DNA of 64,000 nt from a virus (IMGVR_UViG_3300047564_001181:31187-95186); one strand, 5' to 3'; shown: positions 10,963-61,650, counted from the first letter of the stretch. Notes: generated from the letters alone by a model not told the origin. Program-made: numbers and translations.

Positions 10963-10963
10963 G

Positions 10964-11035: not shown

Positions 11036-11040
11036 AAAGT

Positions 11041-11202: not shown

Positions 11203-11227
11203 AAATTCTTCGTCAAGAATTTGTTTG

Positions 11228-11299
11228 AGCCTTCTATCCGATTTGAACGGATGACCCTCGCATTACAAGTGCGATGCTCTACCACTGAGCTAAGAAGGC
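11228..11299 (-). tRNA. tRNA-Thr (TGT)
   Basis: GCCTTCT/AGAAGGC acceptor; TCGCA-CTTGTAA-TGCGA; TTCAAAT T-loop. Confidence 0.95.
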
Positions 11300-11314
11300 G
11301 AACTCCATAAAGCA

Positions 11315-11343
11315 AATATACCCTATGGAGAACGATTTGTCAA
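11315..11343 (-). promoter_or_regulatory. sigma70-type promoter for tRNA-Thr/ncRNA/tRNA-Asn/ncRNA/trxA unit
   Basis: TTGACA-N17-TATATT. Confidence 0.75.
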
Positions 11344-11346
11344 GAG

Positions 11347-12141: not shown

Positions 12142-12186
12142 ATATTTTTTACCTCTTCTAATTAGATTTGATAGCTTGGCTATCAG

Positions 12187-12259
12187 CACCCTATACGAGA
12201 TTCGAACTCGTGGTCTCTTCCGTGAGAGGGAAGCGTCCTTACCGCTAGACCAATAGGGC
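12187..12259 (-). tRNA. tRNA-Glu (CTC)
   Basis: GCCCTAT/ATAGGGT acceptor; CTTCC-CTCTCAC-GGAAG; TTCGAAT T-loop. Confidence 0.93.
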
Positions 12260-12283
12260 TTGGATATAGATTATATCATTTAG

Positions 12284-12541
12284 TGGAGCATATGGGAATT
12301 GAACCCATGTCCAAATAGTTTCTGTCTAAACGGAATTACAGCAATTTGTTTTTATTACGGTTTGTTTTTTCTTTTTGTTTTGCAACTTTCTGTTCCCAAG
12401 GAGTTGCCCCTCGGCACTGCTATGCAGCTAGTGCGAGAGCGTTTTGTGTTACGCCGTTTATTATTTTGTGTCGTTTTAGAAGTCTACACAACTTCTGCTG
12501 CCGTGTTAGATTTCGGCTATCTGTCGAAACCTGTATGCCCC
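12284..12541 (-). ncRNA. ssrA: tmRNA, short form (258 nt)
   Basis: 5' GGGGCAT..GGTTTCGAC and 3' GGACATGGGTTCAATTCCCATATGCTCCA (Ala-type G3:U acceptor); tag ORF GVTQNALALAA* at 12455-12420 after AATAAAC. Confidence 0.93.
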
Positions 12542-12542
12542 G

Positions 12543-12614
12543 CACCCCTGGCAGGATTCGAACCTGCGACCAATAGCTTAGAAGGCTACTGCTCTTCCAC
12601 TGAGCTACAGAGGT
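12543..12614 (-). tRNA. tRNA-Arg (TCT)
   Basis: ACCTCTG/CAGGGGT acceptor; GTAGC-CTTCTAA-GCTAT; TTCGAAT T-loop. Confidence 0.95.
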
Positions 12615-36710: not shown

Positions 36711-39700
36711 TTATACCTCCCTAACTGACATGTTCATTTTTGGACCATTTCCATCTACTGAGTAAGAAATTGAATGGACATAGTATACCTTATCGTTTTG
36801 ATTAGAGATATTGTACTGCATTTCTGGATAGAATACTCTTACCTTATCACCAATTTCAAGAAGAGGGTTGGGGAATATTTCAACATTTAAAACATTTTTT
36901 GTAGTAGAAGAATTTTCAACAACCCATTGTAGCAGACTGTCGGCTTGAGAAACTGAGTTTAGATATTCTCCAGAGATAGAAACATTGTTATTTCCGTATT
37001 TAGCTCTATTTCTTTCAATCAAGCTCTTTCTTTCGCTATCATCTCCGAGCCTTCTCGAAACATAGTCGCTAAGAGTAATTTCTCCAGAATTAAGTCTATT
37101 AATTGCTACACCAGAAATGATTAATGGCATATTAGTTTCCCCACCTAAATTAATGGTTGACCTTGATGTATTAAATACCCAAAAATCTGCAGTGTAAGAT
37201 GATGCTGAAAAATCTGCTACATAGTAATCTTTGTTTAATTCTTTGAGTGATATTAGTTGAGCGTATACTGCTGGTGTAGTAAACTTAACACTAAACTTTC
37301 CAGCCTCTCTCAACTGTCTTCCAAAGTCTTCATAGTATATTTTAGCATTGTCACCCTTTACTATCATATCAGATACTCCTCCTGGGAGTAATCCTCTTTC
37401 TGTTGCCTCTTCTAATTTCATAAAGCTGCTTCCTTTACCAAAAAATGTTGAGACTGGATAGTTTGCATTTTTATTTGTAGATGCTGCCATGAGATATTCA
37501 AACATGGCTTCTGAGTCGCTTCTACCAAACATACAGATAGTATTACTTTTCTTATTAATTGACTTTGTTATTGGCTCTTTAACTTGTAAAACTTTCTGAG
37601 CTTCCCAATATACACGATAAATATTGTTTTGACCAGATGTTTCAACGGTTACTGATAGGTCAGATGTGCCTGTGTATGAGTATCCATTGTTATTGAAGGC
37701 TTCTCCTAAGTCGATTGTTTCGTATGCAACTGCTGAAACATTTACAAAAGCACTACCTAGAAGTGTTGGTTTGAACTTACCGCCAGAGTCTTTTTTAACT
37801 CTATATAGTCTAAGATTGTGAAATTCTTTATTTAAAATCTGACTTTGTTGAATATTGCCAACTTCTTCTATCTCAAGGAAGTATCCCTCTGTTCCGTCTG
37901 ATGAGTACTTTAATTTAAATCCTATACCAGCAATGCCACGATTATTAAATACATTTTCTACATCTTGTTGTTTTTTAGGCTTTTCAAGAAGTCTCATTCT
38001 AGTTGAAATTCTTTGTGGCTGAAAGTCTAATGTTTTATAAAAACCAGAAATAAATCTTTCTCCAAAGTTATCGATAGGGATGCCCGTTTCATCTACACCA
38101 GTTTTTGCTGCAACATTTTTATCAAATACGCCTTTAGGACCACTATATTTTAAGTATCCAGGGTAAGAAACTCTTTTATCCTCTTGTTTTTCATACATCT
38201 TAGGGTCTTTAAGTTTTATAGACTTATTAACCATAGTGCCAGAAGGTTTTAATGATTTATTGTATGTAGTATCATAGAGTTTTGTTACAAATTTGTTATC
38301 AATCAGGTCTGTTTCTGTTTGACCGTTATGTGCTCTAACTTCTGTTCCTTTATATCCTCTTCCAGATGAAATATAGATATAGTCTTTATTTCCAGAGGCT
38401 AATGCATTTTCTACATCCTGTACTTCAAAGTTTAAGTCTACTAGAAGACCACGGCATAGAATTGATGAGCCAGAAGAAATGTCTGACCTAATCTCTGCAT
38501 ACTCGCTTTCGGTAAATACAATACCTTTGCCAGAGTTTTGTGGAGATTTATCATCGAATATGTCTACTATCAGACCACGATATTTTATTAATTCTGAATC
38601 AACTAAGACATAGCCAGAGAACTTATTTTTTGTAAGAAACTGAGTGCCAAATTCTTTATCTACAAGAATTCTAAAATATGATTTTTCTGTGTCTGTTGCA
38701 TTAGAGTAAACATTCCTAATAACATCATTTTCGTCAATTCCAGAAATTGGGGTGTCTTTGGCATTGTCTAAAATTGCTGGAATACCATTTGAGCCAGTGA
38801 AAGAATCTGGTCCAAGAATATCTGAAATGTATGATAAAGCAATTAGACTTTCTTGTCCTGTACCCTGCCCAGACTCTATCGACCATAGCTCTGTAACGCC
38901 ATAGGAAAGGTCTCTAGAGGCTAAAGAAGCGTTGTATAGTAAATTCTGCTCATCCTCATCCTGAACCCCTGCCTGTGCTCTTAAAATTGATTTTGGCTCC
39001 TTTACTATCCCGTTTCCAGAATACCCTACGGTTGCCTCAGTAATTGGCTGTGCTGTTTCTTCGGATAAACTAATGATGTTGGAGATATATTCTCCATTAA
39101 GATATGGCTCTTCATCATCTGCTCCTGTCCAGGATTCAGAGCCTACTAGCCAAAAGTCGGTGTCGTTTGCACTTACTAGGTTTGAGAAAGCCTCTTTGGT
39201 AACAGCCTGAATTATGTTATTGGCATCTACATAAATAGCATATTGTGCTGAATTAGCAATTTGCTCTAGAACTTGACTAACTGTAGAAGAATTATCTGAA
39301 TAGAAAAAGTCCATAACAAAGTCATCTTTTACAGAGTCTGAAGACCTTCTTCTAAAATTATAGTTTGTTACACCAACATTATCAAATAGCATCAGTAGAG
39401 CTACAGATGTTTCCACACCACTAATATTTGCAATAACAATATCTGGTGCTTTTATAGACTTTAAAAAGAAGAAGTAGTCTTCAAGTTCTATGTCTGTTGA
39501 AAAATCATTGTTTTCATTCCAGTCAATTGCGTAAAGTACGGCGACTGGAATTTCTTCCTCATCTACAATCTGTTTAAAAATAAACTTTGTTCCTTGATAT
39601 AACATGTTAGACAAGATAGAGTTGCTATTTCTAGTAGAAAATATTCTGTCAACATTTGATATCTTGATGCCGCCAGTTGTAGAAACAACTCCAGCAACTG

Positions 39701-40832
39701 GAATTCCATAACTTGTATTATTAAGAGTAGTCGTTTTATCAAATGACATTACATAAGAAGTGATATCTGCATTTAATCTAGGTGATACTTCTATTACCTC
39801 TAAAGGAATAAAGTTTTCAGACATTTTAGTAACTGAGAATCTAATACCTTCTACTTCTATGGCTTGAGATGTAGGTGCAGTAAAATCTGTGACATACTGT
39901 GGGGTTGTTCCCCAAGAAGTTGTAGATGGATTATAGTAAATCTCTAAAATACCATCTGAGAGTATGCTAGTGTTATTTGTTATTGAATAAATAGAAACCC
40001 ACTGTGCAGAACTATTTAAAATCTCAACATTAAATGATACTGGATATCCAGCATACTTCTGGGTTTTAATAACAATTTTATTTGTGTAAAAAGAATCTGT
40101 ATATACAGCAAATGGTGCTGCATAAGTAATTACTCCAGAGCTGTTTGAGATACCAACTGTTTTTATTAAAGCGTTTTCTTTTATCTTTCTAATTGAATTC
40201 CAGTATCTATATCCTGCATTTTTGTATATTGGATACACTCGGTCATCTCTTGTTTGACCAGTGATGTCTCCAAAGTTAGATACTGTTAGTTTTTCAATAT
40301 CAATAATTGGGTTTGGGTTTCTAACATTTCCCATCAGATGAACAATTCCAGGGTCTGGTCTATTAGGCTCAAAAACTGACAATAGCGGGCTGTACTTTAA
40401 CCTGTCTTTATTATCTTGTTCAACATATGAATAAAAATAAAAGTCTTCTGCGGATGCAAAGGCTGTTGTTAATCCACTACTTAAAGTTGCTTGAGTAGAT
40501 GTAACAGAAGACACATAAGTATTTGCTGGAAGATATCTTGATTGAACTCTCATATATTGAGTTACTCCATGACCAGAGCCAAGAGTAAATTGAGTTTGAC
40601 CTTGTGTTCCACTAGCAATCGTAAACTGTTTAGTTTCTCCGTCAAAGAAAATACTGGACTTTCCTGCGTCATATCCAGAGCCTACAGAGTATGATGAAGA
40701 GTATGTTGTTGTATAGCAACCGTAGTCTTCGATTGGCATAAAGTCGTTCATGTTCCACTCGGCATAGACCTTGTGCTCGGATTGAATTGTTGTTTGGTCT
40801 TTAAACTTACTTAGGTTAGACGAGGTTAACAC
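36711..40832 (-). CDS. large minor tail (tail tip/hub) protein
   Basis: 1373 aa, downstream of the TMP; C-terminal 'NPLLEIGD.V.......YYV.SI.Y' hub-like motif. Confidence 0.75.
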   Translation of the reverse strand: MLTSSNLSKFKDQTTIQSEHKVYAEWNMNDFMPIEDYGCYTTTYSSSYSVGSGYDAGKSSIFFDGETKQFTIASGTQGQTQFTLGSGHGVTQYMRVQSRYLPANTYVSSVTSTQATLSSGLTTAFASAEDFYFYSYVEQDNKDRLKYSPLLSVFEPNRPDPGIVHLMGNVRNPNPIIDIEKLTVSNFGDITGQTRDDRVYPIYKNAGYRYWNSIRKIKENALIKTVGISNSSGVITYAAPFAVYTDSFYTNKIVIKTQKYAGYPVSFNVEILNSSAQWVSIYSITNNTSILSDGILEIYYNPSTTSWGTTPQYVTDFTAPTSQAIEVEGIRFSVTKMSENFIPLEVIEVSPRLNADITSYVMSFDKTTTLNNTSYGIPVAGVVSTTGGIKISNVDRIFSTRNSNSILSNMLYQGTKFIFKQIVDEEEIPVAVLYAIDWNENNDFSTDIELEDYFFFLKSIKAPDIVIANISGVETSVALLMLFDNVGVTNYNFRRRSSDSVKDDFVMDFFYSDNSSTVSQVLEQIANSAQYAIYVDANNIIQAVTKEAFSNLVSANDTDFWLVGSESWTGADDEEPYLNGEYISNIISLSEETAQPITEATVGYSGNGIVKEPKSILRAQAGVQDEDEQNLLYNASLASRDLSYGVTELWSIESGQGTGQESLIALSYISDILGPDSFTGSNGIPAILDNAKDTPISGIDENDVIRNVYSNATDTEKSYFRILVDKEFGTQFLTKNKFSGYVLVDSELIKYRGLIVDIFDDKSPQNSGKGIVFTESEYAEIRSDISSGSSILCRGLLVDLNFEVQDVENALASGNKDYIYISSGRGYKGTEVRAHNGQTETDLIDNKFVTKLYDTTYNKSLKPSGTMVNKSIKLKDPKMYEKQEDKRVSYPGYLKYSGPKGVFDKNVAAKTGVDETGIPIDNFGERFISGFYKTLDFQPQRISTRMRLLEKPKKQQDVENVFNNRGIAGIGFKLKYSSDGTEGYFLEIEEVGNIQQSQILNKEFHNLRLYRVKKDSGGKFKPTLLGSAFVNVSAVAYETIDLGEAFNNNGYSYTGTSDLSVTVETSGQNNIYRVYWEAQKVLQVKEPITKSINKKSNTICMFGRSDSEAMFEYLMAASTNKNANYPVSTFFGKGSSFMKLEEATERGLLPGGVSDMIVKGDNAKIYYEDFGRQLREAGKFSVKFTTPAVYAQLISLKELNKDYYVADFSASSYTADFWVFNTSRSTINLGGETNMPLIISGVAINRLNSGEITLSDYVSRRLGDDSERKSLIERNRAKYGNNNVSISGEYLNSVSQADSLLQWVVENSSTTKNVLNVEIFPNPLLEIGDKVRVFYPEMQYNISNQNDKVYYVHSISYSVDGNGPKMNMSVREV

Positions 40833-41578
40833 TAGACCTCCACCAAGTTAATTGATACATTCCAAAGGTCATTATATTGACCTCTTTTTACAATGTCGTA
40901 GCTAAAGTCATCAAACATAACATTATAAACCTCTACTTGTGAGGATGCGGAAGCTGTATTGTCTCCTCCATCATATACTAAAATCATCCAGAAGTCGCCA
41001 GTGTATGTTTCATACCAATCTTTAATATCTTGACCAGCACCGTAAGCGTCTGAAGTAATACTTGTTCCTCCAGGAGATACTAAAGCTCTTGAAGGTAAAT
41101 CACTCCAGCTAGTGCTAAATGTATTTTTATCTGTAACATAGTATGAACGCATGCGACCATTTAACATACGCTGTTTGTATTCAATTCTATTTGGAGATAC
41201 TGCAACTGGTTCTCTGCCGTCATCTGTTAGGTATAGGTAGTTTGTTCCAAGTTCCCATTTTGTCATATTCGTTGCAGTGGCAGCACCAGATGTTCCACTA
41301 TTTGCACTTGCAATTTTGAATGTATGGGGGCTAGTTGTAGTAACATCCGTAATAAGTTGTGGTACTGAAAAACCAAAGTTTCCAATTGTTGCACCAGCAA
41401 TTGTCACATAATCTCCAACACTAAAACCATGGGCAGAGGAAGTTGTATATTGAATCTTTGTGTTAGTATCTGTTTTTGAAATACTGGTTACTGAAGCGGT
41501 AAGTCGGATAGGCTCATTTTGAGTCAGAATAACCATTGAAGGTCTTAGATACTTTTTATTTAGTGCAGCGTATGCCAT
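40832..41578 (-). CDS. distal tail protein (Dit-like)
   Basis: First gene after the TMP; 'RMLNG.MRSY', 'SW..LP', C-terminal 'VSINL.EV'. Confidence 0.65.
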   Translation of the reverse strand: MAYAALNKKYLRPSMVILTQNEPIRLTASVTSISKTDTNTKIQYTTSSAHGFSVGDYVTIAGATIGNFGFSVPQLITDVTTTSPHTFKIASANSGTSGAATATNMTKWELGTNYLYLTDDGREPVAVSPNRIEYKQRMLNGRMRSYYVTDKNTFSTSWSDLPSRALVSPGGTSITSDAYGAGQDIKDWYETYTGDFWMILVYDGGDNTASASSQVEVYNVMFDDFSYDIVKRGQYNDLWNVSINLVEV

Positions 41579-41580
41579 AA

Positions 41581-44500
41581 TTAACTCCTAAACCTATTTT
41601 CCATAGAGCGTTGTACTCTTCTAAATTCTTTAACAACAAGATTTGCTGCTTGTTGTGGGTCATTGGAAGTAACAGAGATATTAACAGGCATATTAAGATT
41701 GTTGTTCTTAACCTTTGTTGTAGAAGTCATTACAGATGTTACTCTAGCACTATTTGACTCAGGCATGCTGTATTCTGGAACCTTTCCGCCCATTTGCATA
41801 CCAATTCTTCCGCCAACCATTCCTCCCATATTATACCCTACTCTTCCTCCAGAGTTCATTGCCTGAAGTGTTGAAAGGTTTGCAGCGGTTGCTTTTTTAT
41901 TTACAACAAACTCTCCTGGGGTAAGCATGGCTGGAACAGTATCTGTATTTCCAACCCCTGGAACAATTGAGCCTTTATTAAATCTCATCACCATTCCACC
42001 TTTATTGAGGAACTGCATAGAGCTTAAGGGAATTCCATTCCAACTATCTCCAGTAATTCCACTTGCAACCATCTTGCCATTGCTATTGTAAATACTATAA
42101 GTAGATGAGGTTGGATTAAACTGTTTCTTAAACTTAGAAGTTTGTTGACCTGTAACCTGACCATTTTGTGCTTGATACTGCTTAACGCTTCCAATGCCAC
42201 TTACTGTAATAGTGGTTGTACCAAATCCTGGAGGAAGTATACCTTGAGCATTTGAGCCAGCACCAGAGGTTGCTGTAAATCCACCAATAACAGCAGCGTA
42301 TAGTTTTTGAGCTGCAGCTTGGTCTAGTCCGTATGCGTCAGCAAGTGCTGTTGCTGCATTTTTAATTGCTGTGTCAAACCCTTCTACCAGTCCTTTTGAT
42401 GAAGCATTAACAGACTCTTTAACCTTTGGAGGTACAATTTCTGCAACCTCAATTGCTGCGTCTTCAAGTTTTTGAAGGTCGGTAGCAGTTACTTCTCCAA
42501 CCTCCATATCAATGATTTCTTGAGATTTATCAATTAGACCCTGTAGCCCACGCAAAGACTTATTACGACCAATATTAATCTTTTCAATCTTTTTATCAAT
42601 GTTGTCCATCTGTGCGTCAGCGGCTTCACCTGCGGCATTTGCAGCTTTTTGATTTGCCTTAAGTTGAGCATCAATGCCCTTGATTGCGTTATCTCTAGTA
42701 TCTTCAATTTGGTTAATAGCTTCTTCTCTACCAAACTGTTGAGCATCTGAAGCTTGTTGAATTTGAGATTGAACAAATCCAAAAAGGTCTCCCTTAGCAA
42801 GAGATGAAAGTCCGTCTATAGATGTTTGTCTTTGGTTGTTATAAAATTCTTCTGCCTTGTATTCTTTTTCAAGAAGTTTAATGTACTCGTCTGTATTGTC
42901 ATTAATAAGGTCTGCTCTATCTTGAAGAGCCTCAGCTTCTGCATCCAGTTGTTTCATTCTGGATTCGTGTGCATCTGCTAAAGCACCCTTTTCTTTTTCA
43001 AGAGCAGCAATTCTTCCATTTGCAATGTCATTTACTTTTTCCATTGCATCTTCTTGTGTCTTAATATAATCTCTTAATTGATTATCTAAGTCAATTTTTG
43101 CCTGACGAGATGCCTCATTAAAGTTAACTTTTGCTTCAAGCTCAATAGGTGGTAGATTTAAATCTTTAGGGTCGATTCCAGCTGCGAGTGCTCTCATAAA
43201 TAGTTGAGCAGATTCTCTACCAGATTCTGTTGCTAGGTTTAGATTTGCAAATGCATCGGCAGCAGCTGACTCTGGACCATATCCCATATTTCCAAGAGAT
43301 TGCTCAATGCCCATTCTAAGTGATTGTGGGTCAAGATTCTGACTATTAATTAGTTGTGCTGTTTGAACTCCAAACTCAATTGGATTATCAGCAGATTGTC
43401 TTAGTAAGTTTTCGTATGCACCAACGAAGGCAGTTGCTTTCTCTTCAGCAGTTCCAAGATTTTTAATTGTTGCCTGAACAGATGTAACAAGAACTCCCAT
43501 AGCATCTTCTGCGTTTTTAATTCCTTTTAATGTAGTATTCCATGCTGAGTTAAATGCTTCAGTTGCCATAGATTGTCTAGCAATTTCTGCAGTAATTTCT
43601 TTTGCTTGTGTTGTATCAAAACCTTGTGTTAGGAGCGATGTGTATACTTCAGTTAAAGTATTTGCCTTTTCCTGTTCAGTTCCCAGACCCTTAATTCTTT
43701 CAATTGCATCACCATAATCTTGTGTAACTGCAGCGGCATAATCTTTTTCAATCTGACCACGACCAACAATTGCAGCAGCCATACCCATAGAACGAGTTTG
43801 CTTTTCATTTTCTTTAAGGGCAGCACCTGTCTTTTTAAGTTCGATGTTGTATACCTTAGCCATTTCAGTGGCTTCTCCGTACACATCTCTAATCTGATTT
43901 ACCCACTGCTCAACCTTCATGTCACGGATAAAGTTTCCAATTTCATAGATAGTTGCTAGTGTTCCTACAACTGGAATTGCTTTAAGACCAACTCTTGCAA
44001 TTCCCTTTAAGATTCCTCCACCAAGCATTTTTTGTGCGAGTGCTCCACCAGCTCCACCGCCACCCTTTAGCATAGCTTGTTTTTGCATTTGTCTTTGTAT
44101 TGCATCCTGACCCATGCCTTTTGCCATCATTGCTTTTTGAGCTTTTTGAGCTGCAGAAATACCTCTTCCAGCTTTCAAACCGCCCATTAAGTTTAGACCA
44201 CCAGCACCAACACCTTGCTTAAGCCCAACTAAATTTAATCCCAACATTAATGCTGACATTGGGTCTAGACCAGTTGTCATTATGCCTTCAATAATTGATG
44301 GTAATGTAGCTGCTGATATAGCTCCAAAACCAATCATCATGGCTTTACTTCCAGTAAGTCCTGCAAAAAGTTTTGCTAATCCTCCAACTGCAAATTTTCC
44401 ATATCCCTGTGTATTTCCCATTCCACCATTAATTTGTGCAAGTAGTCCAAGATTATTCTTTGTAGCATCTTTATTGATAACAAATTCGCCTGGTTCTAGT

Positions 44501-47500
44501 AAGGCTGGAACCTTGTCTCCACCTCCAAATCCAGGAAGTTTTCCGCCATTAGCATATTTAAGAACTGGTCCACCCATATTAAATTTTTGTGCTCCAATAA
44601 GTTCACCCTCAAGTACGCTAAATCCATTAGGGTCTGTAGACTTTCCAGTCACTCTAATTCTTGAGTTTGTCAGCAAGTGCTCTGCTTCTGACATTACACC
44701 CATGCCTTCAATAAATCTCTTATCTCCAGCAATATCTGTGAGAGGCAAGGTCATTGTTCCTCTAGGAGTTTTAATGCTAATAATTAAAGGTTCTCTATTT
44801 TGAAGGAATCTAGATTTTGCTCTTTCCGCTTGATTTCTTTCAATACTATAATCCATAGAGCCTCTAGCATTTCTAATTTTTCTATCAAATTCGTCTAGGG
44901 CTTCCTTACGCTTTTTAACTTCATATGGGAATGGTTCTAATTGTTTGCCAAATAAAGTTCCTTCTTGAGATGGGAATAGTGCATCTTCTAGTTCTTGTCT
45001 TTGTCTCTGTAAGTCTGCTAATTGTCTTCTTGAACTTAGATACTGTCTAGCATGGAAAACCCGATTGCTTCGCATAATTAATTGCTCTTCGGCTGGTGTT
45101 GTTGCAACCCTAGTTCCCCAGTTTGCCGCACCGACATCTCCCATACCAAGTTCTTCCATTAAACCTTTTTGTCCGTATGTATATCGTCTTTCAGCACCTA
45201 TTCTATGCATGCTAGCAAAAGTTGTTGCTGTACCCTGACTTGCAGAGAAAGAAGATGTGCCAGGAACTTCAAAAATATCTCCAGGCTTTAATGCCTGTAA
45301 TTCTGCGGAGTCAATCGATGTTCCTCTAAATAGCTGGGTGTCGTGCATAGTCCCTGTTTGTTTCTTTCTAAGAGCATCTATATAGAGTTCTATATCACTT
45401 TTTGGAACTGTCTGTGTAGATAACTTGCCAATAGGGACTGAATCTGCATCTAACTTAATTTTCTTCATCCAGTCATTAATATTAAATCCTTTTTGCAAAA
45501 GTTCTGTTGCTTCTGGAAGGGCTTTTTGTTCTGACCTAGAAAGAATTTGCATAAGCCCACCAACTAAACCGCCGTTTTTCATTCCAGGAATTTTAGCTCT
45601 AATAATTGACCTTATTATTGGCAAAACTTTTTCGCTAAGTGAGAATAAATATTGTTTTTGACTACCTCTAGCAGCTGCATATTCTGCCCTAACAACTGTA
45701 TCTACACCCTTTTGAAGCGTACTTTGACCTACATATCTAATTTCATCTAATTGACCTAAGTCTCTAAGACCAACCCTACCTAAATTTCTCTTTCTTTCTT
45801 CAGTAAGCCAATCATCATATGATAGATTTGGATTTCTTCCCTGTGCCGCTGCAAACTTAGCTTGTCTTTCTTGTAATTTTTGAACTGCTACCGATGAACC
45901 ATATTTTTGTCTTAATTCATTTTCGCTATAAAATATATCTTCCAGTGCCTGAAGACCTTTGCCGTATATAAGTTTTCTTCCAGTTAGAGGCTCAACAATT
46001 TTAGCAATTAATGACTTTTGTTTTTGACCTAGTGGTCCTCTTTCAAGGACGCTGCCTATCTGAGTTGCACCTTTTCTAATATCTTCTGCCGCAGCTGAAA
46101 TTTCAGCCTGGTGTGCAGCACTAATTAGCTGACCATTTAAAAGGCTTTTAGGGTTGGTTCCGCTAACTCTTCCATCAATAATATCTTTTGTTTGTTCAAA
46201 AGTTACTAATGCTCCAGATAGTTGCCCAATATTTTTTCTATTATTTGTTAATGCGTTTAATAAATTATCATCTGTTCTAGAAAGCAAACTTTCAGAGATG
46301 TCTTGAAAAAGGGATTGTAGTTCTTTATTTACAACCAATGGTCTGGTGTCACGAATAATTCGTCTTATTGAATTTGCATCATATGATTTCCCTGTACTCC
46401 TATTTAATTCATCTGCAATAGTTCTAAATGTATCGTCTGATGATGCACCTAAGCTTTCAACTAGCTGATTTAGTCCACCACCTTCAGCAGATGTGATTAA
46501 TGCGTAGTCATTTAAGAAAGCCATTCCTGGAAGGTGTGCATCGGCTGTAAATCCTGAAGCTGTAAGTTGCCTTTGATATCCAGCCTGTGTTGGAGTTGGT
46601 GATGATGGAAGCTGTGCTGAAAAATCTAAAGCATTTTTACCAGCCATAAAGTGTGCTCTGTGAACACCAACTCCATGTCTTACTTCACCATCTGATAATC
46701 CTAATTTGTATCTATCACTTACTGATTGTGTTTTTGCACTATCTGGATAAACATGGCTAAGGGCTGTAATTTCATCTTGATTAAGAAGACCTCTTCTTGA
46801 TAAATCTGCAAATACCTGTTCATATGATTTTGGAGCAGAGCTAACTTTTGCCTTTAGACCTTTCTTTGCGTATTCTTCTTGGAACACTCTTCTTTCTTCT
46901 TCGGTTCCAGTTAATCTTTCTGTTAAGCCATTTGAATATTGACCATATGTTCCATCATTAATAGAGCGAAGAATTGGAGCAAATCTTCTAGATGATTCTT
47001 TATTAATAACAAACTCTCCCTTTTCAAGAAGGGCTGGAACCTTGTCTCCTCCACCATAACCATTAATTTTTCCTCCAGTATCTACTCCGTTTTCGGCATA
47101 GATTACTCCGCCGTCTTTTCTTCTAATAGGTCTTGGACCTCTAGAAGAAGGCATAACTGCTCCTGGTGGAGCAACTGTAGCGGCATTTCTTAAGTTTGCA
47201 ATATAGGTTGAAAGTGATTTATTTAGAAGGTCAACAGATGTCTTTTGTCTATTGTACGCACCTGTTAATTGGTCTGCAGCTATTTTTGCTGCTAATTCTT
47301 CGTCAGTAAGAATTTGTAATTGTTGTACTGGACTTCCAGTAATTCTCTTAAAGAGATTGATAATACTCATGCCGAACTTCATTGCGTTACCAATCAAGTT
47401 ACCAAAAATACCAGCAAGCATAAGAATTGGACCAGATACTGCTGCTACTCCAGCTAGAATCTTAGCAAAGTTTTTAATTGGTGTAGGTAAGTTATTAAAT

Positions 47501-49086
47501 CCATCTACAACCTTTTGTAGAATGTCAAGAGCCTTCTGCATAATTGGTAGCAATGTTTCAGCTAGGTCAGCACCGACACGAATTAATTGTTCTTGTAATT
47601 GTTGTTGTGCTGCTGCAAGTCTTGTTGATGGTGCTCGCTCTTGAGCTTTTAATTCCGAATAAGCTTTCTTTGCAAGTTCATCTGCAGATGCATTCATAAG
47701 TTTTACCATGCCAATTGTCTGAGAGCCTTGCTGATTTAAGTTATCGAATAATGCAGAAATACGAGCAAACTGATACTTACCAAAGATTTGTTCAATAATT
47801 TTTGCTTTACCAAAATCATCTAGTCCTCGTAACTGGTCTTGGAAATCTAGAAGCATAGGCATAAGCTGACCTCTGTTTCGGTCAACTACTCCCTGTAGGT
47901 CAATGCCGAACTGTCTTGCCACCTCAATTGCTTGTTTTGTTGGAGATATAAGAGATGCCATACCAGACTTGATTGCGTTAGCACCTTCACCTGCTGCAAT
48001 ACCACCCTCACGCATTGCCGTCATAAGAATTGAAAGGTCTTTAATGTCACCACCTAGTGCCTGAATAACAGGACCAGTTTTAGGAATTGCTTCTACTAAA
48101 TCTTGTAGCGATGCAGATGTTTGGTTTTCAACTGCGTTTAAAAAGTCGATTGACTGAGCAAGTTCTCTTGAGCTTTGATTGAATGCTGTCTGAATAGATA
48201 GAGTTGCTTTCATAGCCTCTTGTCTATCAACTTCACCGAGAACCATCATACGAGTTGTTTGTGTGACGGCTGATGCAAGTTTTTGACCTTCTAGACCAGT
48301 TGCTGCTAAGTCTGCAGCAAGTGCCATAGTTTCTGAAGATGCAATACCATATTGCTTTGCAAACTCTGAGCCAAGAGTTCTAATTTGACCAATCATTTCA
48401 TCTGTGGCATTACCAACAGTTCCAGTTAGGTCAGAGCCGTATACTTTACGGAATCTTGTAATCTGTCTATCTACTTCAGAGAATGCTTTTAATGCCTGTG
48501 TAGAGAAAATAGCCATTGGAACGGTAAGACCAACAGTTAGCTGACGACCAGCCCATTGAGTATTTTTACCCCAGTTTACAAGTTCTGTTGCTCCACGATT
48601 TACAAGGTGGTTAAAAACCTCATATTGTTTATTTAATACTGCAATATTATTTGCAGCATTTCTCATATCTAATGCGTCTGGAGTAAGAAGAATACCTTTT
48701 CTTCTTCCTCCAACATCACCCATGCCAACTACGGCAGACTGTGCTCTTCTAACTTCTCTTTCAGCCAAGATTCTAGCTTTTGAATCTTTTCTATATGCTA
48801 CTGCTGCTTCTCTAAAGTACTCACGCATTGTGAGTTTGTTTTTCATTAACTGCTGACCGAAGCCTTCGGTTGCACCCGTTAGGTCAACAATTTGTGCTTT
48901 AAAACCAGCAAAGCCAGCTTGGGACGCAAATGTTGAGGCTGCGTCCATCTTAATGCTGGCTGCTGTTTTATTTAATTGTGCAAATGCTGAGTTTGCAGCA
49001 GTTGCTTCACGAACAAGGTTTTTAATGTCCTTTGTTACTTTGCTAAAATCACTGTCGTACCTAAATGTGGACCTGATATCAGCCAT
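41581..49086 (-). CDS. tape measure protein (TP901-type core) with internal effector-like insert
   Basis: Follows the tail chaperones; TMP core at about aa 170-600 ('LTVP', 'GEGANAIKS'), hydrophobic segments, coiled coils; ART-like insert at about aa 1175-1495. Confidence 0.92.
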   Translation of the reverse strand: MADIRSTFRYDSDFSKVTKDIKNLVREATAANSAFAQLNKTAASIKMDAASTFASQAGFAGFKAQIVDLTGATEGFGQQLMKNKLTMREYFREAAVAYRKDSKARILAEREVRRAQSAVVGMGDVGGRRKGILLTPDALDMRNAANNIAVLNKQYEVFNHLVNRGATELVNWGKNTQWAGRQLTVGLTVPMAIFSTQALKAFSEVDRQITRFRKVYGSDLTGTVGNATDEMIGQIRTLGSEFAKQYGIASSETMALAADLAATGLEGQKLASAVTQTTRMMVLGEVDRQEAMKATLSIQTAFNQSSRELAQSIDFLNAVENQTSASLQDLVEAIPKTGPVIQALGGDIKDLSILMTAMREGGIAAGEGANAIKSGMASLISPTKQAIEVARQFGIDLQGVVDRNRGQLMPMLLDFQDQLRGLDDFGKAKIIEQIFGKYQFARISALFDNLNQQGSQTIGMVKLMNASADELAKKAYSELKAQERAPSTRLAAAQQQLQEQLIRVGADLAETLLPIMQKALDILQKVVDGFNNLPTPIKNFAKILAGVAAVSGPILMLAGIFGNLIGNAMKFGMSIINLFKRITGSPVQQLQILTDEELAAKIAADQLTGAYNRQKTSVDLLNKSLSTYIANLRNAATVAPPGAVMPSSRGPRPIRRKDGGVIYAENGVDTGGKINGYGGGDKVPALLEKGEFVINKESSRRFAPILRSINDGTYGQYSNGLTERLTGTEEERRVFQEEYAKKGLKAKVSSAPKSYEQVFADLSRRGLLNQDEITALSHVYPDSAKTQSVSDRYKLGLSDGEVRHGVGVHRAHFMAGKNALDFSAQLPSSPTPTQAGYQRQLTASGFTADAHLPGMAFLNDYALITSAEGGGLNQLVESLGASSDDTFRTIADELNRSTGKSYDANSIRRIIRDTRPLVVNKELQSLFQDISESLLSRTDDNLLNALTNNRKNIGQLSGALVTFEQTKDIIDGRVSGTNPKSLLNGQLISAAHQAEISAAAEDIRKGATQIGSVLERGPLGQKQKSLIAKIVEPLTGRKLIYGKGLQALEDIFYSENELRQKYGSSVAVQKLQERQAKFAAAQGRNPNLSYDDWLTEERKRNLGRVGLRDLGQLDEIRYVGQSTLQKGVDTVVRAEYAAARGSQKQYLFSLSEKVLPIIRSIIRAKIPGMKNGGLVGGLMQILSRSEQKALPEATELLQKGFNINDWMKKIKLDADSVPIGKLSTQTVPKSDIELYIDALRKKQTGTMHDTQLFRGTSIDSAELQALKPGDIFEVPGTSSFSASQGTATTFASMHRIGAERRYTYGQKGLMEELGMGDVGAANWGTRVATTPAEEQLIMRSNRVFHARQYLSSRRQLADLQRQRQELEDALFPSQEGTLFGKQLEPFPYEVKKRKEALDEFDRKIRNARGSMDYSIERNQAERAKSRFLQNREPLIISIKTPRGTMTLPLTDIAGDKRFIEGMGVMSEAEHLLTNSRIRVTGKSTDPNGFSVLEGELIGAQKFNMGGPVLKYANGGKLPGFGGGDKVPALLEPGEFVINKDATKNNLGLLAQINGGMGNTQGYGKFAVGGLAKLFAGLTGSKAMMIGFGAISAATLPSIIEGIMTTGLDPMSALMLGLNLVGLKQGVGAGGLNLMGGLKAGRGISAAQKAQKAMMAKGMGQDAIQRQMQKQAMLKGGGGAGGALAQKMLGGGILKGIARVGLKAIPVVGTLATIYEIGNFIRDMKVEQWVNQIRDVYGEATEMAKVYNIELKKTGAALKENEKQTRSMGMAAAIVGRGQIEKDYAAAVTQDYGDAIERIKGLGTEQEKANTLTEVYTSLLTQGFDTTQAKEITAEIARQSMATEAFNSAWNTTLKGIKNAEDAMGVLVTSVQATIKNLGTAEEKATAFVGAYENLLRQSADNPIEFGVQTAQLINSQNLDPQSLRMGIEQSLGNMGYGPESAAADAFANLNLATESGRESAQLFMRALAAGIDPKDLNLPPIELEAKVNFNEASRQAKIDLDNQLRDYIKTQEDAMEKVNDIANGRIAALEKEKGALADAHESRMKQLDAEAEALQDRADLINDNTDEYIKLLEKEYKAEEFYNNQRQTSIDGLSSLAKGDLFGFVQSQIQQASDAQQFGREEAINQIEDTRDNAIKGIDAQLKANQKAANAAGEAADAQMDNIDKKIEKINIGRNKSLRGLQGLIDKSQEIIDMEVGEVTATDLQKLEDAAIEVAEIVPPKVKESVNASSKGLVEGFDTAIKNAATALADAYGLDQAAAQKLYAAVIGGFTATSGAGSNAQGILPPGFGTTTITVSGIGSVKQYQAQNGQVTGQQTSKFKKQFNPTSSTYSIYNSNGKMVASGITGDSWNGIPLSSMQFLNKGGMVMRFNKGSIVPGVGNTDTVPAMLTPGEFVVNKKATAANLSTLQAMNSGGRVGYNMGGMVGGRIGMQMGGKVPEYSMPESNSARVTSVMTSTTKVKNNNLNMPVNISVTSNDPQQAANLVVKEFRRVQRSMENRFRS

Positions 49087-49457
49087 TATGCACCAATAAG
49101 ACTATAGCCAGTTCCATCTATTTTGTCAAATCCAAACAGTGCAGCATTAGCAGCCTCCTGGTTTCCAGTGGCTTTTGCAATCGCTCTTGATTTAACTTCT
49201 TCAAATGTCACGGCTTTGTCTTGTTCTCCTTTATCATCTTTGTCGATGTCTACCCCTTGTAGAGCAGCCATAAACTTTTGTTGCCTATGCTCTTTCTTAT
49301 GAATAGCACTTAGCGTTGCCATAAGTTCTTGCATTGACAAACTTTCTTCCAGTTGTTCGTAGTCCTTCCAGTGTCCTAAAAGGAATACTTCGGATTCGTA
49401 GGTGGCTAGGTCTAGCTCAGACCAGCTTGTTCCAGAGCCACCTGAAGTTGGTTTGGG
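49086..49457 (-). CDS. tail assembly chaperone gpT moiety (expressed by -1 frameshift)
   Basis: The -1 frame is open from the CCCAAAC slippery site (49451-49457) through 'GSGTSWSELDLA..ESEVFLLGHWKDY..LE' to the stop at 49086. Confidence 0.8.
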   Translation of the reverse strand, partial: PKPTSGGSGTSWSELDLATYESEVFLLGHWKDYEQLEESLSMQELMATLSAIHKKEHRQQKFMAALQGVDIDKDDKGEQDKAVTFEEVKSRAIAKATGNQEAANAALFGFDKIDGTGYSLIGA

Positions 49458-49747
49458 TCATTCAGCTTAATATCCGCCCCCACCTCCAGAATCTTGTACA
49501 TGGTCTGAAGGTCTACAGAGTCTTCAAGAGTCTCTCTATCTTCAGAAAGTTTCGGTGCATACTGCTTCATAGCAATCTGCGTACATTCGACAAGAATCTC
49601 AAGGAATTCATCCTCATTAGAGATATCTTGAGTTTTTGACCAAGCTTTCATAACTTCTCTTAAGTTTTTAATGCTTAGTGGTTTTACTTCAATTGATGTG
49701 CCATCGAGCAGTTCTAGCTCAACGGACTCGTAGATTTTTGTTGCCAA
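49412..49747 (-). CDS. tail assembly chaperone gpG
   Basis: Between major tail and TMP genes; ends just past the slippery heptamer. Confidence 0.85.
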   Translation of the reverse strand: MATKIYESVELELLDGTSIEVKPLSIKNLREVMKAWSKTQDISNEDEFLEILVECTQIAMKQYAPKLSEDRETLEDSVDLQTMYKILEVGADIKLNDPNQLQVALEQAGLS

Positions 49748-54782: not shown

Positions 54783-56531
54783 CTATTCAAAGATTTCTGC
54801 GGAACCGAGGAAACGCCCGCCCCACAACGATTTTCTCATTGTGGTAGTCTGTTTTGCTTCTGGAAGATTTTCAATCTCACCAGATTTGCGTACTGCTGTG
54901 TCATTCTCAACGGATTCCACTCTTCCGTTAAGGGCATCTAATGCTGCCTGTACTTCAGCTAACGCTTTGTTTAGTTGTTCGTGCTTTTCAGCTGTTGCTT
55001 TTGCAATGTCTGCTACTGATGTAGCGACTGTTGCAATTGCAATGTTATTAGCTTCTGCACTCTTTTCAAAAGACTCTGTGATAAATGTTTTAACACCCTC
55101 TAGTGCTTTTTCAACATCAACTCCAGCTGCCTCACCGTCTTCGGTGGAAGCGTCTGCAGGAACTTCGACAACCTCTTCGGCTGCTTCTTCTACAGCGTCT
55201 TCAGCTTCTTCAACAACTTCGTCAACAGTTTCAACAATTTCATCAGACTTTTCTACTGTCTCTTCTACTGCTTCTGCTTCTTCTACAACTTCAACCTCAA
55301 CTTGTGGGGTTTCAACTGCTTCTGTATTCTCTGTGTTTTCAGCCACTTCAACACCTCCTTTAATAAGTGGTTTGGCAACCTGAGTTGCCTTATCTGTCTC
55401 TTCGACAGAAACTTGTGTAAGAGACTTGACAACTTTTGCCGTCCATGCTCTTAATGTTTTCATTTTATGACCCACTCTTACTCCCGATGGTCTCCATTGT
55501 CCTTTGCTATCTTGTCGATATACTTCAATAACAACCGCAGGGTCTTCCTCTGTTCCAGTTACAGTTACGGAGGAGTTCGGTACATTAATTTTACCACGAG
55601 TTACTACTCTGGTCACCTTGCCTCTTGCGGTTCCACCAGATGAGTTCCATTGTACAAAATCTCCAGATGAAAATGCTGCTTTATTTAGTGGTTTTTCAAT
55701 AATTTTTGGAGATTCTTCTAAATCCTCTGTTTCAATTGTTCCAGGCATTGGCTTTGGGTATTTAGTTGGAGTATCTTCATTTGTGACTACTCCATCAGCC
55801 TTAGTAATATGACCATTAATCATTTTCCACATAGCCTTATCCATGTCTTCGCCTTCAACGATATCTAGCCAACCAATTGGAGATAGGTCTTTTTCACAAA
55901 CTAAGCAATCTCTTGTTTCAGAAAAATCTGTGTAGGCAAGTTGGTCAGTTTCGCACCAGAATACATTCTGAATGTCTGACTTATTAAAAATTGAAGAAGC
56001 AACACCATCTTTGTCCATTTTTTCAACGGAGAAAATGTTTGCTAGTTGGTTTGCTGGTGAATCTACCAAAGAAAGTTCTACAAGGTCATAATCTTTAATT
56101 ACTCTAACTGTTGAGTCGGATGTTGCATCGTAAGCCTTTTCAAAGTCTTTTACTGCTCCACCGATAGAAAATCCAGTTAGAGTGCCGTCAAGAACCATTT
56201 CCCACACCTCTTGAGCACCCTTTGAAATATAAGTATCAACATACACGCCACGATATTGCTTATTTGTGTTTTTATCGAAGAAAGTATCTGTTCTGAAATT
56301 AACCATTTTACCAGCTGGAATTGGCTGGTGCATTAATCTAACATTTCCACGAAAACGCTCGAAGGCTTTTTGTGAAGCTTCGGATGTAACAATATCACCT
56401 TGTCGGTCAACATTGTCAAGAGTTGCAAACCCTGAAACAAGTCGTTTTTCAGCATCCACCTTGGAGATAGGCATTGTCAGGGTGACATGGTTGCCGTCTG
56501 TTGCGAGATGTGCTTTGTTGATATCAATCAT
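54783..56531 (-). CDS. prohead protease-scaffold fusion with inserted HVA1-like domain
   Basis: 'V.GFAT....D...D', 'MH', 'GFSIGG', 'ELSLVD.PAN' (HK97-type protease); acidic coiled-coil scaffold at the C-terminus. Start may be 56531 or 56549. Confidence 0.9.
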   Translation of the reverse strand: MIDINKAHLATDGNHVTLTMPISKVDAEKRLVSGFATLDNVDRQGDIVTSEASQKAFERFRGNVRLMHQPIPAGKMVNFRTDTFFDKNTNKQYRGVYVDTYISKGAQEVWEMVLDGTLTGFSIGGAVKDFEKAYDATSDSTVRVIKDYDLVELSLVDSPANQLANIFSVEKMDKDGVASSIFNKSDIQNVFWCETDQLAYTDFSETRDCLVCEKDLSPIGWLDIVEGEDMDKAMWKMINGHITKADGVVTNEDTPTKYPKPMPGTIETEDLEESPKIIEKPLNKAAFSSGDFVQWNSSGGTARGKVTRVVTRGKINVPNSSVTVTGTEEDPAVVIEVYRQDSKGQWRPSGVRVGHKMKTLRAWTAKVVKSLTQVSVEETDKATQVAKPLIKGGVEVAENTENTEAVETPQVEVEVVEEAEAVEETVEKSDEIVETVDEVVEEAEDAVEEAAEEVVEVPADASTEDGEAAGVDVEKALEGVKTFITESFEKSAEANNIAIATVATSVADIAKATAEKHEQLNKALAEVQAALDALNGRVESVENDTAVRKSGEIENLPEAKQTTTMRKSLWGGRFLGSAEIFE

Positions 56532-56564
56532 TGCAGTTTTATTATACACCCTTATTATTTATTA

Positions 56565-58464: not shown

Positions 58465-61400
58465 TTAAATTGTTATTGTTGCTTTAGCAACTAGGTCTGT
58501 TTTCTCTTTTACACCTTCAAAGGTATAGGCATCTACCTTTTTTAGATATGGAGACTCTGCCCATACAAGGTGGGTGCTTGTACTAACCCAGTGAGTTCCT
58601 TTATTTGTTACCCCGTCTTTTACATACACAACACTGCCGACAGAAGGATTGGTCTGTCTTGTAAGGGTTAAGGTTGTAATCTTAGACGGATTATTTGCAT
58701 CTCCATATGTAAATCCTACAATGAATATGCCGTTTTGAGAAGAGGTTGATTGATTTTTCAAAAGAACCCTGTCTCCGTCTTGAATATAGGTTCCATCAAT
58801 TAACAGTTGATTTGTCGTGGGGTCAGTTATTGTAAGATTTCCCGTTGTCCCCGTGAATGGCTCATTGATTCTCGAAGCTAGGTCAACATCTACAAGCAAA
58901 GCAGTCTGAGTGGTTGGAACAGACATTGGCTGATATATCTCTGTATTATTTGATATCTCAGAATCATAGAATATGATTTCGTTGGAGCCTGACGGGTCTA
59001 CAGCAAGCTTATACGCACCCTTATATAGATTATTTATCATTGTAACTTCGGTTAAGGTGATATCTCCAACAGCCCCATCTAAGGTTAGAATCTCGTCTAG
59101 ATAGAAGTCTGATTTATTGGTTGCATGTCCAAAAACAATATCTACATTTGTAGATTCTGCAACTATCATTCTAGCATTAAAGGCAACAACGATATGTGTC
59201 CAAACACCAGCAGTAAAGCTATTTGAAGTGCTTCCATTTACCCAAGCAGTTCCTCCTCCAGAAAGCGTTATGGTTGAGCCACTTGATGTCATTGTTCTAG
59301 TATTTGTCCCATCAGTAACAGTAAATAATGTTCTTGTGTCAGAATCTGGGATGTTAACAAAGAAACTTAATCCTAGTAAGCCAGATGTTGAATCGTCTCC
59401 ACTTGTTGTTCCAAGGTCATAGTTAATTTTTGCAGTTCTTCCAACTCTTAATCCACCAACTTCTTCTGTCCAAAAGAATGGTGTTTCTCTATAGTCTGGT
59501 AAGTGTAAATCTTTTTTGGAGTCAGTAAATGTAAGCTCAACATCTGGACCATTACATGTAATTGTAGATGTGTAAACCCCAGAAGATTCTTCTACCTCTA
59601 AAGATGATAATCTAAAGTATGAAACGGTAGTTGGGTTTTCTTCAACATCATTGGAGTTGAATGTCATTGTAATTAGCAACGCTCTTGTCTCTCCAGAGCT
59701 TTTACCCATAATATTTTTGATATGAGTTCTGTTGGTTATAGTCTCAGATGTAAACCATGTGTCATCAGCCTCTTGATATATTTGATTAAATGATGAATAG
59801 TCTGTATCTAATTGGGAGTAAGAAGAGTATTCCGTATCAAGTGCTGAGTAGTCTGCGTATGGCTCTATTACCGTATTTCCAATTGGAGTGGCTGTAACCG
59901 TTAGTTCTGCACTATCGTGTCCCCATTCAACTCTATTTGGTCCAATAATTCCATTTACGCCGTCTAGTCTTTTAGCATCAATTTTAAACTTTATCCAACC
60001 AGTTGATTTAACCACAAATCTTTTTTGTGTTGAGTTAAATTCTGCAGTATATTTATTAATTCTGGTATTTGCATCAGTATATATTCCAGAGCTGGTAGAT
60101 GTTATGTTTGTATCTAGTTGAACTACTTTTTGTAGACCGCCATTAAATCTTTCTATTTCTGAGTCCGTCAGGTCTGCAATGTTTTCTTTTTCGTCAAAAA
60201 TATTGTTAGACATAAATCTTAAGTTTGCGGAATACGCAATTGGGAATAGTCCAGGATTTTCAAATGTTGTTTGTGCTCCAGTTCCACCACTAACCTGTTG
60301 AAATATTGTAATTTCATTAGATGTTGAATTAAAGAAATATCCAACCGAAAAGCTTCCATTGATTCCACCAGAAATTGTAGAGCCAATTTTTGTTCCACCA
60401 TCATTATTGATTTGATAGTAGATTCCTTCACCGCTTGCTTCTTTAAGAATGTATATTTTTAAGAAGTATTCATCATTTATTGGGTCTTGTAAAACCATTA
60501 AGGTTTTAACATCTCCAGTTGTTGGCGAAGTTTGTGCCGTTGTCTTGTGGAATACCCCAGCAAAACCACTTCCATTTGGTGTAGAATCTGAAGAACTTGT
60601 TTTTACATAACTTCCATACCTTTGTGGATTAATCTCAACAAGCCCACCGACATCCATTCTTAGTCCTTGTGTTCCGTCCCATGAGAATACGCTAGATGTT
60701 TTATCTTCTGTGTATTTCATTGATGGCTGTTCAAAGTTATTAATTCTTAGGTGGTCTTTTTCAATAACTAAATTGTTTGACTCTGTGTTGTTCATCCAAG
60801 AAGAACCATTGTATTTTTGAATAACTCCAGCAAACTTTGATTGTGCTAGAGAAAGATTATATCTGTATCCACCAAAATTGCCAGCTAGTGATTCTGGAAC
60901 TTCATATCCTAGTCCGTATACCATGTGTCTTCTTGCCGTAAGAGTAGTCATTGCATATGCATAAATAGCAATATCGTCTAAAGCATAATCTAATCCAAAG
61001 TGGAAAAATCTAAATACATCACTTGCTAACACATAAGATGTAGACAAAATGTTATTTTTAAATTGAACTGTTTTTCCTATCCCGTTTACAATCAGGGATA
61101 CTGAGTCTTCTTTATAGACAAATGCAACATGAAATGGCTTAGACATATTTTCAACTGGAACTACTACTTTTGTTACATTCCCAGCGGTATCTCCAACAAT
61201 GCCAATAAAGGAAGAGTTATGAACATATACGCCAGTCTGGGAACTATCCTTTCCTACAATCTTTTGCATTGTAGATGTTGATAAAGTCGTTTTAGGTTTT
61301 ATCCAAAACTCTAGAGTCATTGGGTCTGCTTTATATCTGGTTGTAGCAAATCCCATTGCTGGAATCTGTACTGCACCCAATGTAGCCGTAGCATTATTTT

Positions 61401-61650
61401 GAGTAATATAAATTGACCTTGACTGGGTTTCAGCAGATGTTCTTCTTCTATAGCTGGTTGAACTATTTATGATTGGAAAGCTTTTTGCTGTGCAGGTTGC
61501 CCTATATGTTCCATTTGTAGATGTGCTTGAGTTTGGAAACTCTAATAGGTATCCGTCCTGATAAATTGTATTCCCAGAAGAAATGCCAGAATCATCAAGC
61601 TTCCAAGTGATTAAAGGCAAATCTTTTTGAATATTAAAGGAATAGGACAT
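58465..61650 (-). CDS. large LamG/concanavalin-like virion protein
   Basis: 'W.LDD', 'TLEFWIK', 'HVAFVY....SLIVNG', 'DDIAIY'; second 'WTHIVV' domain; C-terminal 'GDRVLLKNQ....NGI' fibre motif. Confidence 0.7.
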   Translation of the reverse strand: MSYSFNIQKDLPLITWKLDDSGISSGNTIYQDGYLLEFPNSSTSTNGTYRATCTAKSFPIINSSTSYRRRTSAETQSRSIYITQNNATATLGAVQIPAMGFATTRYKADPMTLEFWIKPKTTLSTSTMQKIVGKDSSQTGVYVHNSSFIGIVGDTAGNVTKVVVPVENMSKPFHVAFVYKEDSVSLIVNGIGKTVQFKNNILSTSYVLASDVFRFFHFGLDYALDDIAIYAYAMTTLTARRHMVYGLGYEVPESLAGNFGGYRYNLSLAQSKFAGVIQKYNGSSWMNNTESNNLVIEKDHLRINNFEQPSMKYTEDKTSSVFSWDGTQGLRMDVGGLVEINPQRYGSYVKTSSSDSTPNGSGFAGVFHKTTAQTSPTTGDVKTLMVLQDPINDEYFLKIYILKEASGEGIYYQINNDGGTKIGSTISGGINGSFSVGYFFNSTSNEITIFQQVSGGTGAQTTFENPGLFPIAYSANLRFMSNNIFDEKENIADLTDSEIERFNGGLQKVVQLDTNITSTSSGIYTDANTRINKYTAEFNSTQKRFVVKSTGWIKFKIDAKRLDGVNGIIGPNRVEWGHDSAELTVTATPIGNTVIEPYADYSALDTEYSSYSQLDTDYSSFNQIYQEADDTWFTSETITNRTHIKNIMGKSSGETRALLITMTFNSNDVEENPTTVSYFRLSSLEVEESSGVYTSTITCNGPDVELTFTDSKKDLHLPDYRETPFFWTEEVGGLRVGRTAKINYDLGTTSGDDSTSGLLGLSFFVNIPDSDTRTLFTVTDGTNTRTMTSSGSTITLSGGGTAWVNGSTSNSFTAGVWTHIVVAFNARMIVAESTNVDIVFGHATNKSDFYLDEILTLDGAVGDITLTEVTMINNLYKGAYKLAVDPSGSNEIIFYDSEISNNTEIYQPMSVPTTQTALLVDVDLASRINEPFTGTTGNLTITDPTTNQLLIDGTYIQDGDRVLLKNQSTSSQNGIFIVGFTYGDANNPSKITTLTLTRQTNPSVGSVVYVKDGVTNKGTHWVSTSTHLVWAESPYLKKVDAYTFEGVKEKTDLVAKATITI

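Follow-up and report, generated by a model that had tools for sequence, protein, structure and literature searches.

Phages inject enzymes that are made in advance and carried in the head, among them T4 Alt, the N4 RNA polymerase and the MuF toxins. Enzymes also occur fused to the tape measure protein (TMP) of the tail: gp96 of Thermus phage P23-45, a giant siphophage TMP, includes a virion RNA polymerase that is functional and acts in the cytoplasm before phage genes are expressed (PMC10770324), and T5 pb2, like the peptidoglycan-hydrolase TMPs, contains an enzyme domain, which proteolysis after R1127, between a hydrophobic stretch and the enzymatic domain, parts from the ruler (PMC10038345). 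Lambda gpH is a TMP without an enzyme; its glycine-rich region is the cut site that releases gpHC, and gpH* forms a trans-envelope channel (PMC12617516). Ready-made ADP-ribosyltransferases (ARTs) of the R-S-E type are borne in the head as T4 Alt and MuF-ART fusions (PMC7824862, PMC7302621). TMP-fused enzymes and virion-carried ARTs are known already, each separately; literature searches gave no account of an ART within a TMP. This analysis concerns a 64,000-nucleotide stretch of DNA from an uncultured phage, part of a 95-kb IMG/VR virus record (IMGVR_UViG_3300047564_001181:31187-95186, referred to as the window), in which a 2501-residue TMP (P0001) has a variable centre holding a domain, module B, that is predicted to adopt the R-S-E ART fold.

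The arrangement recalls each of these systems in part. It shares with P23-45 the giant siphophage TMP with an enzyme, but the P23-45 polymerase is N-terminal and experimentally shown, whereas module B is internal, lies in a variable region and is predicted. Like T5 pb2 it would place an enzyme domain within a TMP; pb2-type enzymes act on the cell wall, whereas module B would need NAD+. T4 Alt and the MuF-ART fusions are its structural neighbours among the viral models of BFVD, but they are head-borne, whereas module B is part of a tail-lumen protein, and its best sequence-level match, to phrog_832 (‘RNA polymerase ADP-ribosylase’), is weak (E 0.076). Lambda gpH shares the glycine-rich/GEFV-KEAT element (gpH residues 735–765) in a single copy, in contrast to the three copies present here, the first two of which enclose about 800 residues of cargo. 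For RNA polymerase, one fusion to a TMP is in the literature, and an ART in a tape measure would, if true, extend tail delivery to host-modifying enzymes.

Architecture of the tape measure protein

The 2501-residue open reading frame (ORF) is a TMP of the giant siphophage type. It matches PF10145 (PhageMin_Tail) at residues 241–436 with 87.4 bits (Pfam gathering cut-off 33.2), as do all 23 relatives scanned, and matches PHROG TMP families only at residues 12–638 and 2369–2470, the middle being without match. The gene has the position of a tail tape measure, with the tail chaperones on one side and distal tail proteins on the other, in the order portal, protease, capsid, major tail protein bearing an immunoglobulin-like (Ig) domain, two chaperone-position ORFs, TMP and minor tail proteins. 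The annotated Streptomyces phage Annadreamy has the same gene order, and the N-module of its TMP is approximately 30% identical; this cultured relative is without clear copies of the motif described below and without modules A and B. A megablast search of cultured phages with the TMP gene gave no match. Going by the nearest cultured relatives, we guess that the host is actinobacterial. The sequence-only reading of this DNA had described, for the region 44460–47080 (residues 669–1543), an insert of about 800 residues between two motif copies of a 2501-residue TMP, with a third copy near the C-terminus, and this layout is borne out. The protein consists of a conserved N-module, a variable centre and a conserved C-module, with the following features (window coordinates):

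41581–49086, minus strand: TMP gene, 2501 residues; stop-free ORF, PF10145, PHROG TMP families and tail synteny
47122–49086, minus strand: conserved N-terminal module, residues 1–655, with PhageMin_Tail and a hydrophobic helix; 72–88% identical to nine relatives, with dense invariant columns
46927–47121, minus strand: motif element copy 1, residues 656–720, reading GG..., GYGGGD-VPALLE-GEFVINK..., IN-G; from the motif search and DNA repeat D1
45583–46926, minus strand: module A, residues 721–1168, a hypervariable or replaced block with conserved RAH/N/NQ positions
44551–45582, minus strand: module B, residues 1169–1512, predicted R-S-E ART fold; from the AlphaFold2 (AF2) model, Foldseek, VIA, BFVD and residue conservation
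44377–44586, minus strand: motif element copy 2, residues 1501–1570, after the micro-motifs FNMGG and YANGG; from the motif search and DNA repeat
43927–44376, minus strand: glycine-rich hydrophobic segment, residues 1571–1720, with its core at residues 1581–1603; from hydropathy, with 21–25 glycines per 100 residues
42022–43926, minus strand: C-terminal module, residues 1721–2355; 30–68% identical in relatives, of constant length
41584–42021, minus strand: motif element copy 3 with the C-terminal tail, residues 2356–2501; lambda gpH has the element at the corresponding, canonical site

Relatives of the insert are few: among 1.8 billion representative proteins, only 11 were found. Nine full-length relative TMPs (2110–3193 residues) were used to compare architectures. 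Copy 1 of the motif is fixed at residues 676–687 in all of them, copy 2 lies anywhere between residues 1147 and 2235, and the part that starts with copy 2 and ends at the C-terminus has 936–988 residues throughout, so that the variation in length falls between copies 1 and 2, in a mosaic of 455–1544 residues. Invariant alignment columns are dense at residues 1–712 and from residue 1514 onward, with nearly none between. Against the closest relatives, P0002 and P0003, identity in 60-residue windows is 90–95% over residues 1–600, 13–32% over residues 721–1140 and 45–88% in module B, and mostly 70–95% afterwards. Among 107 related loci, no relative with an empty site was found, in which the C-module would follow motif 1 directly.

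Module content differs as well. Most relatives have a recognisable, though diverged, module A. Module B also occurs in most but is absent from P0012 and partial in P0011, and additional insert modules are common to subsets. In P0011 (3193 residues) the variable region holds a HAD acid phosphatase domain (PF03767, Acid_phosphat_B; residues 1693–1828, 35.5 bits, cut-off 27), bordered by FAMGG (residue 1676) and FGKGG (residue 1852). Such [FYM]xxGG micro-motifs number 10, compared with 2.0 ± 1.4 in shuffled sequences, and are sited at module borders. The proposal of swappable domains between conserved flanks is supported in part, with regard to length and module content, including the HAD domain of P0011 and the replacement of module A, but in most relatives the inserts contain diverged homologues of A and B and not unrelated domains. 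The accompanying comparison with a polymorphic-toxin cassette is a loose analogy: polymorphic toxin systems (PMC3482391) likewise combine a conserved delivery scaffold with a region of differing modules, but the variable part here is internal and not C-terminal, the genes downstream of the TMP are minor tail proteins with no immunity-like gene among them, and the modules are homologous in most relatives. An ART among modules that differ between near-identical phages would also suggest an arms-race hotspot within a structural gene.

A large TMP family from freshwater metagenomes, with lengths of 1825–4289 residues, shares the N-module (for example L037:2564-15430, with other loci in the series L029–L108). 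Domains embedded in this wider TMP family include OmpA, LysM, CHAP, Phage_lysozyme2, Peptidase_M23, SLT_3 and DUF2786.

The pattern VPA.L..GEFV.NK occurs exactly three times in the TMP, at residues 683–696 (46999–47040), 1526–1539 (44470–44511) and 2384–2397 (41896–41937). At the DNA level the copies form the largest direct-repeat family of the gene, 3 × 84 nucleotides, with the outer copies 79% and 68% identical to the middle one. The motifs, which had been called near-identical, are thus alike in pattern and, as DNA, similar but not near-identical, and a role as near-identical DNA substrates for recombination was rejected on these figures. Alignment of 24 copies from nine relatives gives a consensus of 55–70 residues: xxGGxV, GG, G-x-G-G-G-D-x-VPA-x-LEPGEFVINK, approximately 10 residues, and LL-x-x-IN-G. 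A glycine-rich segment followed by PA...GEFV..K.AT, as in the gpH-type element, is present. A hidden Markov model built from the 24 copies finds the same element in lambda gpH (E 3.6 × 10⁻⁴, single-sequence search), where it lies in gpHC (PMC12617516), and tblastn finds it in proteins annotated as TMPs in 118 records of cultured phages, among them phages of Gordonia, Nodularia, Burkholderia and Ralstonia; a search of the phage record with PF09718 gave no match. Because it occurs in lambda gpH and in these 118 records, the PGEFV element is, as judged from its distribution, a generic TMP element and not the dedicated cassette border that had been suggested. Its copy number is 0–5 per TMP among the 107 related loci. 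By sequence position, copy 3 occupies the normal location of the element in TMPs, copies 1 and 2 being extra internal copies.

The nonapeptide MKNGGLVGG at residue 1169, which had been taken to split the insert into two domains, is a true boundary between modules A and B, at which homology to relatives starts again. On its N-terminal side, module A has homologues in P0012, P0011, P0007, P0003 and P0002 that are diverged to 24–31% identity; local alignment of the six homologues shows conserved (D/H)RAH-F, N, TT...NQ and PL..N.E positions and long indels. By the identity profile given above, module A is a sharply bounded block, replaced or diversifying very fast, in proteins that are otherwise approximately 90% identical. 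P0012 lacks module B but carries module A, which is therefore not simply an accessory of the ART.

Module B and its predicted fold

The candidate active-site residues and an inserted hairpin of module B are located as follows:

45325–45327 (R1254), 45250–45252 (S1279), 44686–44688 (E1467) and 44680–44682 (E1469), minus strand: candidate catalytic residues, from alignment conservation
44797–45102, minus strand: helical hairpin of approximately 100 residues (residues 1329–1430), inserted into the ART core after the S-x-S strand and before the ExE strand; model helices 163–200 and 219–260

Module B is, in the model, an ART-fold domain with an R-S-E signature, classed by fold and not as a member of the family PF03496 (ADPrib_exo_Tox) because that family gives no match. 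AF2 run on a 12-row alignment gave a model with a predicted local distance difference test score (pLDDT) of 74.3, rising to 85–95 in the β-core, compared with 44 for a model from the single module B sequence; the β-sandwich core of ARTs is present in this predicted model. A Foldseek search of the Protein Data Bank (PDB) with the model returned almost only R-S-E ARTs, led by Vis (E 9 × 10⁻⁵, probability 1.0) and followed by CDTa, C3larvin, ExoS, C3bot and iota Ia. VIA-align, which is independent of Foldseek, also ranked Vis first among 48,161 representative chains (Z 9.8, root-mean-square deviation 3.3, 105 residues aligned, 21% identity), with Tre1 second (Z 9.7, 23% identity), and its matches covering model residues 76–330 are ARTs without exception. 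The viral models of BFVD matched by module B are phage ARTs as well, namely Alt, ModB, VIP2 and MuF-ART fusions. Weak sequence signals are in agreement: besides phrog_832, Atlas points to ADPrib_exo_Tox clusters (0.81).

The signature residues follow the same pattern. Module B reads LFR1254G, PGTS-S1279-F-S1281 and S-E1467-A-E1469-HLL. In a weak profile match to Vis (E 0.96), its RG and S-x-S align with YRG and STS of Vis, which places R1254, in an aromatic-R-G context, at the position of the catalytic arginine and S1279-F-S1281 at that of the S-T-S motif. E1467-A-E1469 is followed by a strand; the loop that precedes it has pLDDT below 50, so that placement of the ARTT loop is modelled poorly. 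In the 12-row alignment, in which identity falls to approximately 30%, 11 rows have the arginine and none departs from S1279; ExE is retained in each of the 8 rows that extend so far. Arginine-specific ARTs typically have the ExE form, and the motif in module B suggests arginine as the residue that is modified. Its closest structures, Vis (PDB 4XZJ) and Tre1 (PDB 6DRH), are arginine-specific R-S-E ARTs with which it shares R and S-x-S, a candidate ExE being present as well, but module B differs from them in the hairpin within its core, in being embedded in a structural protein and in being invisible to PF03496. The hairpin is present in all homologues, and model residues 161–262 match coiled-coil or helical hairpins only. 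Of the effector enzyme domains that the sequence-only reading had expected in the insert, structure prediction thus supplies one, module B with an intact candidate triad, whereas module A has no recognisable family.

The module B family is rare, with 11 matches among the 1.8 billion representative proteins, and was seen only in TMPs or in fragments from short contigs. Searches for longer or stand-alone forms yielded only three short proteins from contigs of approximately 1 kb, which are probably TMP fragments, and a search of IMG/VR with the single module B sequence returned no module B loci. Comparison of the insert with Pfam (to E 10) and, by phmmer, with the PDB, and of a full-TMP profile with the PDB, gave nothing significant.

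Just upstream of the ART core, the helical segment at residues 1202–1228 (window 45208–45483, minus strand) has weak matches to PARP_reg (PF02877), with E 0.029–0.2 and, in one relative, 0.006. All of these fall short of the threshold and could be chance matches.

Proposed delivery and alternative readings

Two hydrophobic segments flank the cargo, the helix at residues 539–566 (window 47389–47472, from a hydropathy scan) and the core of the glycine-rich segment at residues 1581–1603. Their placement suggests a route. At infection the TMP would leave the tail first, and the two segments may insert into the membrane around the cargo. NAD+ is located inside the cell, and the ART module would meet it in the cytoplasm and ADP-ribosylate a host protein ahead of phage gene expression, in a possible role in host take-over or counter-defence. 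The glycine-rich motifs may be cut points between modules, as in lambda gpH and T5 pb2. That the TMP would be expelled first and anchored, exposing the ART, is suggested because of the analogy with TMPs whose glycine-zipper segments have been linked to membrane translocation (PMC10240207), with the lambda gpH* channel, with cleaved T5 pb2 and with the P23-45 TMP.

The reading as a whole, a giant TMP with a variable centre that carries an ART for delivery through the tail, is given slightly better than an even chance. Its established part comprises the layout of the protein, the way this varies among relatives, the ART fold as predicted and the conserved triad; activity, target, cleavage and delivery would follow by analogy, by which the tail probably brings a ready-made, NAD-using, host-modifying enzyme into the cell.

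Several observations weigh against this reading. At a threshold as loose as E 10, module B matches neither PF03496 nor any other ART model in Pfam. Only 12 sequences, a shallow alignment, underlie the predicted structure; the ARTT-loop region (model residues 275–299) has pLDDT below 50; the Z of 9.8 for Vis barely exceeds that of coiled-coil matches to the hairpin; and P0010 has a serine at the position of the catalytic arginine. The phage record encodes no ADP-ribosylhydrolase or macrodomain. Module A gave no match in Pfam (to E 10), the PDB (by phmmer or with the full-TMP profile), PHROG or Atlas, and no recognisable family, fold or catalytic motif emerged in those searches. A folded domain of approximately 25 kDa, in several copies, would be hard to fit into the lumen of the tail tube, and because of this limited space the cargo domain would need to be stored unfolded or in a staggered manner. 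Cleavage and entry into the cytoplasm are drawn from the analogous systems.

Some of these points would suit a protein that is a ruler only, its centre being fast-evolving TMP filling that sets tail length and its ART-like module being structural or vestigial and non-catalytic. TMPs are variable in general, module A and the hairpin look mostly helical, and the lack of a Pfam ART match and the presence in relatives of diverged A and B homologues, in place of unrelated cargo, agree with such filling; the wide spread of insert length would be expected if tail length varied. However, R, S-x-S and ExE are retained at 27–30% overall identity, which is unexpected for a vestigial domain, the β-core modelled with pLDDT 85–95 matches ARTs alone, and genuine enzyme domains occur in relatives. 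A ruler-only protein is therefore considered unlikely.

A distinctly poorer prospect is that injection plays no part and the ART works on the virion itself or inside the cell that produces it, where it might, for instance, modify host or tail proteins at a late stage of infection. The enzyme would be synthesised late, together with the structural proteins and at a time when NAD+ is at hand, and its delivery is argued by analogy; but fusion to the sole protein expelled before the DNA, between two hydrophobic segments, suits delivery better, and the TMP-fused enzyme of P23-45 works after ejection (PMC10770324). The least probable alternative, to which we give very little credence, is that the central modules target the envelope, as do the peptidoglycan hydrolase domains of other TMPs, for although M23, CHAP, lysozyme, LysM and OmpA domains occur in the wider family and periplasmic action has been proposed for T5 pb2C (PMC10038345), ARTs require NAD+, an intracellular compound, and modules A and B match no wall-acting family in Pfam or PHROG searches.

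Tail delivery of a module B enzyme can be extended to a more speculative scheme, which we regard as possible but doubtful. The TMP would be a slot-based multi-effector polyprotein in which the [FYM]xxGG micro-motifs and PGEFV elements serve as points of processing and exchange, with module A as a rapidly swapped part that confers specificity or counters defences. From a membrane-anchored loop between the hydrophobic segments the ART would be set free in the cytoplasm, and tails of this kind might provide a general, programmable route for enzyme injection in long-tailed phages of freshwater, probably actinobacterial, hosts. The role of hypervariable module A and the use of glycine-rich TMP motifs as processing sites become testable hypotheses.

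Neighbouring genes and other loci in the window

The TMP gene is bordered by further tail genes:

49086–49747, minus strand: two small ORFs upstream of the TMP (49412–49747 and 49086–49340), in the position of tail assembly chaperones; phrog_10504 and phrog_10474
36711–41578, minus strand: minor tail proteins downstream of the TMP, of 248 and 1373 residues; phrog_10359, minor tail protein

The annotated chaperone of Annadreamy occupies the same position as the two small ORFs. The head maturation protease ORF (window 54783–56549, minus strand) is unusually long at 588 residues, with protease homology confined to approximately the first 250, and may be a protease–scaffold fusion. Between ribonucleotide reductase and portal lies a 1061-residue ORF (window 58465–61650, minus strand) whose sole match is a C-terminal Ig-like ‘head decoration’ domain (residues 935–1026). 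A cluster of tRNA-Asn, tRNA-Thr, tRNA-Glu and tRNA-Arg genes is located at 10963–12614 (minus strand), where a 259-nucleotide phage transfer-messenger RNA (tag GVTQNALALAA) directly adjoins tRNA-Arg.

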